DNA from: a virus
Taxonomy: Duplodnaviria > Heunggongvirae > Uroviricota > Caudoviricetes
IMG/VR virus record: IMGVR_UViG_3300017747_002194
Span: 64,001 to 91,443 of that record
Direction: 5' to 3' (one strand)
DNA: 27,443 nucleotides
Shown here: positions 14,082-25,377 of the stretch, one piece after another
How positions within the stretch are numbered: the first letter of the stretch is position 1
Layout: each line of letters opens with the position of its first letter
The notes under the pieces: model-generated
Seen by the model: only the letters and a program-made list of their open reading frames with translations
Told to the model about the DNA's origin: nothing
Database searches by the model: none
Position numbers and translations under genes: made by a program

Positions 14082-14103
14082 TTTTTGCCTTATTAATATA
14101 CTA

Positions 14104-14135
14104 TAAATATAACTGATTTGATTATTGTATGCAAA
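14104..14135 (-). promoter_or_regulatory. Bacteroidota sigmaA-type promoter for the scaffold-MCP operon
   Basis: TTTG (14135-14132), 20-nt spacer, TATATTTA (14111-14104). Shares the 15-mer AAATCAGTTATATTT with the promoter at 21809-21840. Confidence 0.75.
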
Positions 14136-14138
14136 TAC

Positions 14139-19992: not shown

Positions 19993-19995
19993 AAG

Positions 19996-20075
19996 TTGGA
20001 GTGGTAGGATTTGAACCTACGTAGCCTAAGCGACAGATTTACAGTCTGCTGATTTCCCAACTTACCATCACTCCA
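19996..20075 (-). tRNA. trnY: tRNA-Tyr(GUA)
   Basis: Acceptor TGGAGTG/CACTCCA; anticodon arm GCAGA-CT GTA AA-TCTGT; variable arm; GTAGG-TTCAAAT-CCTAC T arm; no encoded CCA. Confidence 0.9.
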
Positions 20076-20083
20076 ATATTTTG

Positions 20084-20166
20084 CGGAAGACTAGGGACTC
20101 GAACCCCAAAACCTTTTACAGCCAACAGTTTTCAAGACTGCTTCCTCATCCAGCCGGATGCCTTCC
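20084..20166 (-). tRNA. trnS: tRNA-Ser(UGA)
   Basis: Acceptor GGAAGGC/GTCTTCC with G discriminator; anticodon arm GCAGT-CT TGA AA-ACTGT; long variable arm; TGGGG-TTCGAGT-CCCTA T arm; no encoded CCA. Confidence 0.88.
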
Positions 20167-20840: not shown

Positions 20841-21047
20841 TTATTTATTCCAGAGCCCCATAGGACATTTAGAGTATTCAGATCTAGTCTTAGCGATTAA
20901 AGGGCAACCACATTGTGAGCAAGTATTATTTACATTGTAAAAACAACTTGAACAAATAACTGCTCTGTCCATAGCCATCTTTTCTACTTCTGGTTTCTCC
21001 CAAACTACATTGGTCCAACCATTTAATATTTCTTTAAGCTTGCTCAT
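20841..21047 (-). CDS. Small Cys-rich putative metal-binding protein
   Basis: R...CxxC...CxxCGC....K.R.....CP...W pattern in 68 aa. Confidence 0.75.
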   Translation of the reverse strand: MSKLKEILNGWTNVVWEKPEVEKMAMDRAVICSSCFYNVNNTCSQCGCPLIAKTRSEYSKCPMGLWNK

Positions 21048-21273
21048 CTTCTTTTAATTTTAAACGTTCAACATAATCTCTATTGTGGATAGTAGGTCTA
21101 AATTTACCTAGGTAAATTAATTGAACTACTTTACCTTCTCTATTAGACATAGTATCTCTAATTACTCTAAATTGTGAGTCACAGATTCTTTCCAGTTCAA
21201 CTTTAGACAAACCAAACTCACTCTTAATCTCATCCAATATTTCTTCATAGATATTACTTTTAGTTGAATTCAT
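21034..21273 (-). CDS. HU/IHF-like DNA-binding protein
   Basis: Helix-turn-helix body (EEILDEIKSEFGLSKVELERICDSQF) followed by V.L..LGKF.P, the HU/IHF signature. The start is placed at ATG 21273 (MNSTK) rather than 21315 to minimise overlap. Confidence 0.7.
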   Translation of the reverse strand: MNSTKSNIYEEILDEIKSEFGLSKVELERICDSQFRVIRDTMSNREGKVVQLIYLGKFRPTIHNRDYVERLKLKEDEQA

Positions 21274-21484
21274 TAGTATTGCTAGCTTTAACATTTCTAA
21301 AGTCACCTCTAACAATAATTAGAGGTTTAGATAGTGTATTATTTTTATAAAAACAAAAATCTTCTGCATCTTTTTTATTATAAAAATAACCTATAACTGG
21401 ACCACCAGAAATAGTTGAAGTAGTTATTTCTAAACTAACTGTATAATGACCACTTGTATTTTGATAACACTTATATTCTTCCAT
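21260..21484 (-). CDS. Hypothetical protein
   Basis: 74-aa ORF, TAATG-coupled to the upstream wHTH gene. Confidence 0.55.
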   Translation of the reverse strand: MEEYKCYQNTSGHYTVSLEITTSTISGGPVIGYFYNKKDAEDFCFYKNNTLSKPLIIVRGDFRNVKASNTNEFN

Positions 21485-21804
21485 TACGCAAAAGTTAGAT
21501 TAATTGAATCATGTTTTAACACATGTAAGATATTAGGATGTACTTTCAAAGTATGTTTATCTACTTCAATAAGAATCTTCTTCTCTTTTAACTTTTTAAT
21601 GTAATTATTAAAGTTAAACTTTTCCATATCTAAAGACATACGTATATCAGTTCTAGTATCTTTATCTAAAATAGAGATATGCTTATTAGCAATGATCACT
21701 AAGATCTCAATCTCTTTCTCAGTCAGATGTCCCATAATAGGATTTAACATCTGGATAAGATATTTAGTTTTTTGAGCTATAGGGAGTTTAAGTTTGAATT
21801 CCAT
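21484..21804 (-). CDS. Putative winged helix-turn-helix DNA-binding protein
   Basis: LTEKEIEILVII...IRMSLDMEKFNFNNYIKKLKEKKILIEV...LKVHP pattern (wHTH plus wing); probably leaderless. Confidence 0.65.
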   Translation of the reverse strand: MEFKLKLPIAQKTKYLIQMLNPIMGHLTEKEIEILVIIANKHISILDKDTRTDIRMSLDMEKFNFNNYIKKLKEKKILIEVDKHTLKVHPNILHVLKHDSINLTFA

Positions 21805-21808
21805 ACTA

Positions 21809-21840
21809 CAAATATAACTGATTTAGTTATTATAACCAAA
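21809..21840 (-). promoter_or_regulatory. Bacteroidota sigmaA-type promoter, 4 nt before the ATG at 21804
   Basis: TTTG (21840-21837), 20-nt spacer, TATATTTG (21816-21809), then TAGT-ATG. Confidence 0.85.
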
Positions 21841-21863
21841 TTTATTATATAACTAAGTTGATT

Positions 21864-22172
21864 ATAGATATAGTAATCCCCTTCTAGATTTTATTCTAGT
21901 GAGAGGATTAATTATAAACTTATATCTATCTGTCTTTAACCGTTCCTAATAACTAGGCCACTGCTTACTTTGATCCTGTCAATTCAGGGGGATACTTCAT
22001 ACCCTATGTAGCAGCTATAGACTTTCATTTATAACCCTTTTTGTACCTATCGGAGAAACCTCATCTGCTATAATCTCTATTATTTCAAGAGTGCGGATTA
22101 CTATCCAACTTCTAACCAGGTTTTAACTTACTGGGTGATACCCTGGTGATTAACTGTTTAAGTTAAAGTACA
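21864..22172 (-). ncRNA. Candidate structured non-coding RNA of ~310 nt
   Basis: No ORF over 60 aa in an otherwise fully packed arm; own consensus promoter; interleaved 9-bp and 6-bp helices at the 5' end, several GC hairpins and a long 3' hairpin (21864-21929). Confidence 0.55.
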
Positions 22173-22174
22173 TA

Positions 22175-22206
22175 CAAATATAGTCATTTCTAAGCACATA
22201 TCCAAA
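22175..22206 (-). promoter_or_regulatory. Bacteroidota sigmaA-type promoter preceding the ORF-free unit
   Basis: TTTG (22206-22203), 20-nt spacer, TATATTTG (22182-22175). Confidence 0.85.
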
Positions 22207-22216
22207 TTTATTTTAT

Positions 22217-22429
22217 CTATTCTTCAGTTATAGGGCTAGTTCCGGTTAATAAATAAAACTTATTAATCTTTTCAGCCATGATTAATTTCTCATTAATCTG
22301 ATCCATATCTTCATAATCTATCTTATCGTTATAGTGTTTCTTAGTTACACCCATTTTAAGGTAGATAGATCCATCAGGTAAAATACCTTTAATCTGATCA
22401 TCATTGAAATGTTTACTTTTTGTTCTCAT
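22217..22429 (-). CDS. Hypothetical protein
   Basis: 70-aa ORF, TAATG-coupled to the upstream gene. Confidence 0.55.
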   Translation of the reverse strand: MRTKSKHFNDDQIKGILPDGSIYLKMGVTKKHYNDKIDYEDMDQINEKLIMAEKINKFYLLTGTSPITEE

Positions 22430-25285: not shown

Positions 25286-25377
25286 GTGTGGTATAGCTCA
25301 GTTGGTCAGAGCGTGTGAATAGAGAGTCTTTACTCCCGAACTCGCAAGGTATGTAGGTTCAAATCCTACTACCACAC
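25286..25377 (+). tRNA. tRNA-like gene (His-like G-1:C73 acceptor) with a 23-nt anticodon loop; anticodon not assignable
   Basis: Acceptor TGTGGTA/TACCACA; canonical TA-GCTC-AGTTGGTCA-GAGC D arm; stem TGTGA/TCGCA enclosing 23 nt; GTAGG-TTCAAAT-CCTAC T arm; no CCA. Confidence 0.75.

Follow-up and report, generated by a model that had tools for sequence, protein, structure and literature searches.

What is encoded in a 412-bp gap of a phage gene block, and what might its product do? The gap considered here (21805-22216, minus strand) lies between a 70-aa ORF and a 106-aa ORF in the last 27.4 kb of a 91.4-kb IMG/VR virus record. This whole stretch of 27,443 nucleotides is referred to as the window, and its coordinates are used throughout. 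The initial annotation had picked out the gap as a long ORF-free interval holding a structured RNA, and no other gap outside the tRNA genes is as large in the minus-strand gene block, which spans 23 kb. No ORF of at least 25 aa was found in it under translation table 11, and none of at least 60 aa under code 11 or with TAG read as Q or TGA as W, alternative codes used by some crAss-like phages. A protein-coding gene under an alternative code was ruled out, as the gap holds only a single 59-aa antisense frame with TAG as Q and frames of 30-34 aa with TGA as W. The GC content was 0.35-0.38 within the gap and the RNA, compared with about 0.25 in the flanks.

The 70-aa ORF (22217-22429, minus strand) always lies upstream of the RNA in our synteny table and had no Pfam or PHROG match above threshold. 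The 106-aa ORF (21484-21804, minus strand) is found downstream of the RNA in most relatives; it had earlier been described as a "wHTH" gene, and its sole match, to HTH_45, fell below threshold. No RNA-binding family was found among ten neighbouring small proteins compared with Pfam and PHROG. Two genes downstream of the RNA, a 93-aa ORF (21034-21315, minus strand) had sub-threshold matches to DNA-binding proteins of the HU/IHF type (Pfam Bac_DNA_binding, 20.5 bits with a cut-off of 22.4, and PHROG 379). The RNA stands at the head of a one-directional block of about 22 kb comprising small genes, tRNAs, terminase, portal and structural genes, with the phage tRNA genes 1.7 kb and the terminase and portal genes 2.5 kb downstream, and gene direction and GC skew both switch at a point about 900 bp away. 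The sole ARAGORN calls in the window were a tRNA-Tyr and a tRNA-Ser within 19995-20166, the tRNA-Ser (20083-20166) being called by ARAGORN only, while a 91-nt match to the Rfam tRNA model (25287-25377, plus strand, 48.6 bits) received no ARAGORN call.

Occurrence and conserved fold

The large terminase encoded in the window was about 35% identical to the terminases of gut crAss-like phages and of Flavobacterium, Cellulophaga and Bacteroides crassviruses, and the stretch occurs in DNA runs from freshwater metagenomes. We collected relatives from IMG/VR through the 106-aa protein (21 loci) and through the terminase (63 loci). The gap was 71-92% identical in 13 of the relatives found through the 106-aa protein, and searches with a profile and a covariance model located the RNA in more distant relatives as well, whose terminases (TerL) were 59-68% identical, giving 50 distinct RNA sequences from IMG/VR and metagenomes. 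The proposal that homologs would be conserved was borne out, with the RNA present at the same syntenic site in every relative fetched. The order was constant: the 70-aa ORF came first, then the RNA with up to two extra ORFs behind it, and next, in most relatives, the 106-aa ORF, beyond which lay the HU-like ORF, further small ORFs, tRNAs and the terminase. Complete 90-kb relatives carried exactly one copy each.

A degenerate pattern of 29 nt drawn from the RNA core matched 38 IMG/VR contigs and 30 metagenome contigs (freshwater and activated sludge), all of them from this phage group. The same pattern had no match in 185,579 prokaryote species genomes, a blastn search of 50,697 deposited phage genomes returned none, and the RNA was absent from Cellulophaga phage phi14:2. 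Within these searches the RNA is restricted to one freshwater group of crAss-like phages.

Folding of the window sequence by itself was not better than chance (z = -1.3 on either strand), and its minimum-free-energy fold was misleading, recovering only two of the helices described below (P3 and P12). Compensatory changes were already seen in plain MAFFT alignments, where UUAAC/GUUAA was replaced by UUAGU/GCUAA, CUAAC/GUUAG or AUUAC/GUAAU, CCAGG/CCUGG by GCAAG/CUUGC, CUGCU/AGCAG by UUGCA/UGCAA or CUGGU/ACCAG, and UGUAC/GUACA by UAGAG/CUCUA. We built a covariance model of 312 positions from 18 close sequences with an RNAalifold consensus and used it to realign the 50 distinct sequences; it matched the window at 21863-22172 with 329 bits. 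Across the 50 sequences, standard pairs made up 95.9% of cells, compared with 74.0% after shuffling and 33-44% in slid registers, and the covariation score was 0.534, compared with 0.173 and 0.04-0.11, respectively. Changes on both sides were observed in 55 of 66 pairs, a count which, like the other covariation counts, comes from alignments fitted to the model structure and leans towards it. The outcome with a set of 30 sequences was similar. In relatives, about twelve helices in two domains are kept by compensatory changes, in line with the covariation that had been anticipated for a genuine RNA.

Because the alignment was fitted to the model, folds made independently of it and the asymmetry between strands were also checked. 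Single-sequence energy folds of four distant members (L100, L080, L093, L016) recovered most of the consensus helices. Pairing was 91.4% on the minus strand and 86.1% when read as the other strand, an advantage due to 212 G-U cells, and the minus strand is the folded strand. Type B sequences (L003/L005, L011, L143, L125, L149), one of three RNA types (A, B and C), fit the model in the P7-P9 core only, and RNAalifold on type B alone was uninformative, as its six sequences are too alike. A column-by-column search for covariation indicative of pseudoknots or tertiary pairs gave no contiguous extra helix and was swamped by the three-clade phylogeny.

The structured RNA spans 21862-22172 on the minus strand, about 310 nt, so that RNA position n corresponds to window coordinate 22173-n. 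Its 5' limit was set by the covarying pairs of P1, whose bases must be in the RNA, and its 3' limit (~21862) by the insertions that begin there in four relatives (L007, L010, L012, L013). The 5' domain (22042-22172, RNA positions 1-131) is a four-way junction closed by P1 (1-5/127-131), which involves the RNA's own 5' end. It contains the hairpin P2 (7-11/19-23), P3 (26-31/53-58), whose large loop does not vary among members of a type, and P4 (65-69/119-123), which carries a variable insert (22055-22103, minus strand; RNA positions 70-118) delimited from the alignments. Every pair of P1, P2 and P3 showed changes on both sides, as did three of six in P4. The P4 insert is replaced or expanded by a 46-nt module of two hairpins in L015, L040, L031, L043 and L042.

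The 3' domain (21874-22035, minus strand; RNA positions 138-299) comprises P5 to P12 and holds a near-invariant three-way junction (P7-P8-P9). P5 (138-146/254-262) and P6 (151-156/244-249) stack across a purine-rich internal loop and open into a junction with P7 (159-165/205-212) and P10 (216-219/225-228). P7 bears the hairpins P8 (169-171/182-184) and P9 (185-188/195-198). Towards the 3' end lie P11 (263-270/292-299), which is weak, and P12 (274-278/285-289), together with the motif GAAGGGG (21878-21884, minus strand), invariant in types A and C and present as GAAGGGC in type B. By column conservation over the 50 distinct sequences, the most conserved core is the P6-P7-P8-P9 junction (21961-22026, minus strand), with a near-invariant hairpin loop, UAWGAAGUA, and the hairpin CCUG-AAUURA-CAGG.

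Several stems had been proposed in the initial annotation from the single sequence. All of the complementary segments that it named are present where it placed them, and about half of the stems were right. Covariation in relatives supports ACCAGG/CCUGGU (P3), GGGUAU/GUAUCC (P8), CCUG/CAGG (P9) and CCUAG/UUAGG (P10). A long 3' hairpin was correct in its inner part, which covaries as P11/P12, but not in its outer part, which is unsupported because the covarying P5 and P6 use its 5' arm as their 3' strand. The pseudoknot UUUAACUUA/UAAGUUAAA is not supported, since its 5' strand covaries instead with the partner in the local hairpin P2; the UAAGUUAA strand of the proposed pseudoknot is invariant, and the pseudoknot pairing is lost in L004 and L010. 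Two further helices were also unsupported and conflict with covarying ones: in UAGCAG/CUGCUA, the CUGCU strand covaries with AGCAG at RNA positions 208-212 (P7), the other AGCAG, that of the proposed helix, sitting in the variable insert, and GGAU/AUCC conflicts with P4.

Comparison with known RNAs

The sequence was searched against the 4,227 models of Rfam 15, with the gathering threshold of each family as the criterion. No family was found at the RNA, as had been predicted for a novel RNA, and the whole window gave two tRNA matches elsewhere. With E values up to 10, the RNA region returned four snoRNA and lncRNA matches at chance level (13-20 bits, compared with thresholds of 40-80), and an Rfam search of nine loci that included divergent members found tRNAs only. 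ARAGORN called no tRNA or tmRNA at the locus. The core of the earlier view, namely a phage ncRNA with a fold of its own that is not a tRNA, tmRNA, 6S RNA, RNase P RNA or known ribozyme, is strongly supported by the conservation, the covariation, the conserved promoter and the lack of an Rfam match.

RNase P RNA and 6S RNA had no model match and are also excluded by architecture, as the ends of this RNA are not paired together: the 5' end pairs with the middle of the molecule (P1, 1-5/127-131) and the domains lie side by side, unlike RNase P RNA, and the fold is a two-domain one with several junctions and unpaired ends, unlike 6S RNA. Group I and group II introns, likewise without a model match, were rejected because the RNA has its own promoter and sits between two complete ORFs. 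A retron or other reverse-transcriptase-associated ncRNA, including the UG27 type, was ruled out as the 91-kb genome had no match to the reverse transcriptase family PF00078. Inspection led us to drop a hammerhead-type core in the P7-P9 junction, where the core sequences are lacking, a sarcin-ricin motif in the P8 loop and a tRNA-like cloverleaf in the 5' domain. A leaderless ORF of 7 codons at the start of the RNA was also dropped, its ATG not being conserved in the other types.

A search of the literature available to us on crAss-like phages or Crassvirales together with non-coding or structured RNA found nothing relevant. Among known RNAs, GOLLD and ROOL are large orphan structured RNAs, often located in phages or prophages near tRNA genes, and GOLLD was reportedly first seen in lake metagenomes. 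They resemble the present RNA in being phage-borne, with tRNA genes nearby, an orphan function and a complex covarying fold that combines a conserved core with a variable periphery. However, they are larger (about 580-800 nt, compared with about 310 nt) and belong to another host phylum and phage group, and the RNA matches neither of their Rfam models. Species 1 and 2 (rnaC/rnaD) of phage T4 are stable RNAs encoded in a tRNA gene region. They share with this RNA an unknown function and a position near phage tRNA genes, but are shorter, at about 120-140 nt, and arise by processing of a transcript that they share with the tRNA cluster; no sequence relation to them is expected.

We conclude that this is very probably a real and new family of structured RNA, with a probability of roughly 0.9. 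As to its function, we tentatively favour a stable RNA acting in trans, which would work with a conserved partner through the invariant junction, and put this at somewhat less than even odds.

Promoters and transcription

Immediately upstream of the RNA, positions 22175-22206 of the minus strand match the pattern TTTG-N20-TATATTTG exactly, with a -33 box (TTTG, 22203-22206), a 20-nt spacer and a -7 box (TATATTTG, 22175-22182). By sequence this is a promoter of the Bacteroidota sigma-A type, and a Bacteroidota host is inferred from promoters of this type. Bacteroidota promoters are outside the coverage of the sigma-70 promoter scan. The general pattern TTTG-N19-21-TAnnTTTG had three exact matches in the window, compared with 0.9 expected by chance, and two of the three flank the RNA (22175-22206 and 21809-21840), consistent with the bracketing by promoters noted initially. 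Across 22 aligned relatives, TATATTT of the -7 box and ATT of the -33 box of the RNA promoter were invariant, and the first helix of the RNA starts 3 nt past the -7 box.

The second promoter (21809-21840, minus strand), identified by pattern match and alignments, is of the same type and serves the 106-aa ORF. In the window and most relatives this highly conserved promoter separates the RNA from the gene that follows. A distance of 4 nt lies between the end of its -7 box and the ATG of the 106-aa ORF, and the mRNA of this ORF would therefore be leaderless. An inverted repeat of 8 bp, TTAGTTAT / ATAACTAA, surrounds its -33 box (21809-21850, minus strand) and could be an operator, a candidate suggested by the sequence. 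A second copy of the extended motif of this promoter occurs at 14100-14136.

A terminator scan found no terminator behind the RNA. In three relatives an ORF starts at the 3' end of the RNA or at most about 20 nt from it (L011, L100 and L010); in L011 and L100 the distance is 10-20 nt, and in L010 a 123-aa ORF of unknown kind overlaps the 3' end. No recognisable promoter motif lay between the RNA and the closely following ORF in these three. Given the lack of a terminator and the ORFs close behind without a promoter, transcripts probably run on, which would be compatible both with a leader acting in cis and with a stable RNA released by processing. The suggestion of a "stand-alone" RNA with its own promoter therefore holds with regard to the promoter, which is exact and conserved, while the missing terminator and the close ORFs make its stand-alone character less certain.

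Four RNA-library runs were compared as contigs, from which ends, strand and level are not readable and in which uncovered parts are uninformative. One metatranscriptome run (X18) contained a 261-nt contig of a relative lying wholly inside the RNA (positions ~36-295), a weak hint of expression for which DNA carry-over is possible. A contig over the RNA in run X14 is probably DNA, and in X15 and X17 coverage is confined to the second promoter and the beginning of the following gene.

The RNA might be a cis-acting 5' leader of the late block, either a riboswitch-like sensor or a polymerase-modifying RNA like put of phage HK022, whose put RNAs modify host RNA polymerase to read through pause and stop sites. 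The RNA heads the long one-directional block and follows a strong promoter directly; this position, the lack of a terminator and the ORFs that closely follow or overlap the RNA in L011, L100 and L010 speak for a leader, and the first two features are shared with the put RNAs. However, the conserved second promoter would make the next gene independent of the RNA's transcript, and no expression platform is visible, as both an alternative terminator and a helix masking a start site are absent. The genes right behind the RNA also vary among relatives, whereas riboswitches usually keep the gene they regulate, and at 310 nt and twelve helices the RNA is far above the size of known antitermination RNAs. 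On balance we consider a leader unlikely, though it is the main rival to the trans-acting RNA.

RNA types and possible functions

The RNA types were discordant with the flanking genes and with the terminase. Compared with the window, L005 had a terminase 96% identical in amino acids and flanking genes 81-87% identical in nucleotides, but an RNA of a different type that was only 51% identical, and L006 showed the same discordance. In the opposite direction, L012 had a terminase 75% identical and an RNA 91% identical to those of the window. These comparisons suggest that recombination between phages that are otherwise close has replaced the RNA allele. The neighbouring small ORFs do not change with the RNA type, and no partner protein emerged from them.

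In a few relatives, the ORFs starting 10-20 nt past the 3' end of the RNA encode DUF559 endonucleases of the PD-(D/E)xK type (L011:1516-2070 together with L149 and L132; L125; L100:1688-2125 together with L121). The two versions are 46% identical and occur in relatives with different RNA types. Such a sporadic distribution looks like that of a free-standing homing endonuclease, and homing with co-conversion may offer a simple cause of the allele swapping; an alternative cause is selection on a 5' domain that sets specificity. Extra small ORFs of no known family also accumulate between the RNA and the 106-aa ORF, a hot spot in which they are placed before or after the second promoter (L010:2489-2860, L011:2128-2490, and in L004 and L022).

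Besides calling it a switch, the initial annotation had suggested that the RNA might serve in packaging or as a protein sponge or anti-defence RNA, and we found no features that favour any of these over the others. As an anti-defence RNA or decoy, it would be abundant and folded and would bind, or mimic the target of, a host immune or RNA-cleaving system. Its location among small, fast-changing early or middle genes, the presence of phage tRNA genes 1.7 kb away and the swapping of alleles between otherwise close phages (L005, L006) agree with such a role. The swapping is, however, explained more simply by the neighbouring sporadic endonuclease genes, no likeness of the RNA to tRNA or to any host RNA family was found, and a near-invariant core is unusual for a surface engaged in an arms race. 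We regard this role as quite improbable.

A catalytic role, in which the conserved junction would be the core of a ribozyme that processes its own 3' end or acts on other RNAs, e.g. the phage tRNAs, is rated a little lower still. The near-invariant junction and loop nucleotides within a complex multi-helix fold suit a ribozyme, as does the lack of a terminator, given that a defined 3' end would then need processing. Against it, no Rfam ribozyme model matched even with E up to 10, no signature of a cleavage site was identified, and the three-way junction is by inspection without hammerhead core sequences.

A packaging RNA comparable to the pRNA of phi29, forming a multimer on the portal and aiding the terminase motor, seems very improbable. 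The two RNAs have in common that they are phage-encoded and folded, with their own promoter and a three-way junction, and the present one has the terminase and portal genes 2.5 kb downstream. It is, however, about twice the size of pRNA, and the Rfam search, which we take to include a pRNA family, gave no pRNA match. Its loops, judged by inspection of the alignment only, are A-rich and include no complementary covarying pair. These phages also have an ordinary large terminase, and we know of no phage with this type of terminase that needs a pRNA. Least credible of all is a replication primer or origin transcript that would prime DNA synthesis by a persistent hybrid through the conserved GAAGGGG, as ColE1 RNA II does through its hybrid: the conserved G-run at the 3' end adjoins AT-rich DNA and the skew switch is about 900 bp away, but that switch coincides with the switch in gene direction, no other sign of an origin was found, and the elaborate conserved core would be superfluous for priming.

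For the stable trans-acting RNA that we favour, the following course may be proposed. Host RNA polymerase would start at about 22172 and make an abundant RNA, which would either be released by processing or remain in a longer transcript as its folded 5' portion. Its working surface would be the three-way junction of P7, P8 and P9 with the fixed loops, binding a protein or RNA partner common to all these phages or their hosts, while the 5' domain and the peripheral stems would be exchangeable modules. The RNA may then act as the component of a ribonucleoprotein in middle or late infection. A more far-reaching version, to which we give a limited chance, is that these crAss-like phages, and they alone, possess a new kind of ribonucleoprotein or ribozyme with the RNA as its working part. 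The RNA might, for instance, reprogram host RNA polymerase, or the translation and tRNA machinery, for the late programme; in that case the invariant three-way junction would be the active or binding site and the exchangeable 5' domain would set specificity.

The newness concerns the RNA family, whose functional kind could prove to be one already known. It is rare for a large folded RNA to show strong covariation yet have no assigned role, and such RNAs have repeatedly opened up new biochemistry, from ribozymes and riboswitches to RNA-only cages. The present RNA is a well-defined case: it measures about 310 nt, has 55 covarying pairs and a small invariant core, its ends and its promoter are clear, and it is amenable to in-vitro transcription, structure probing and cryo-EM without phage culture. 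The swapped RNA types in near-identical phages constitute natural experiments on the variable domain, and the carriers, the crAss-like phages, are a major but poorly understood phage order.
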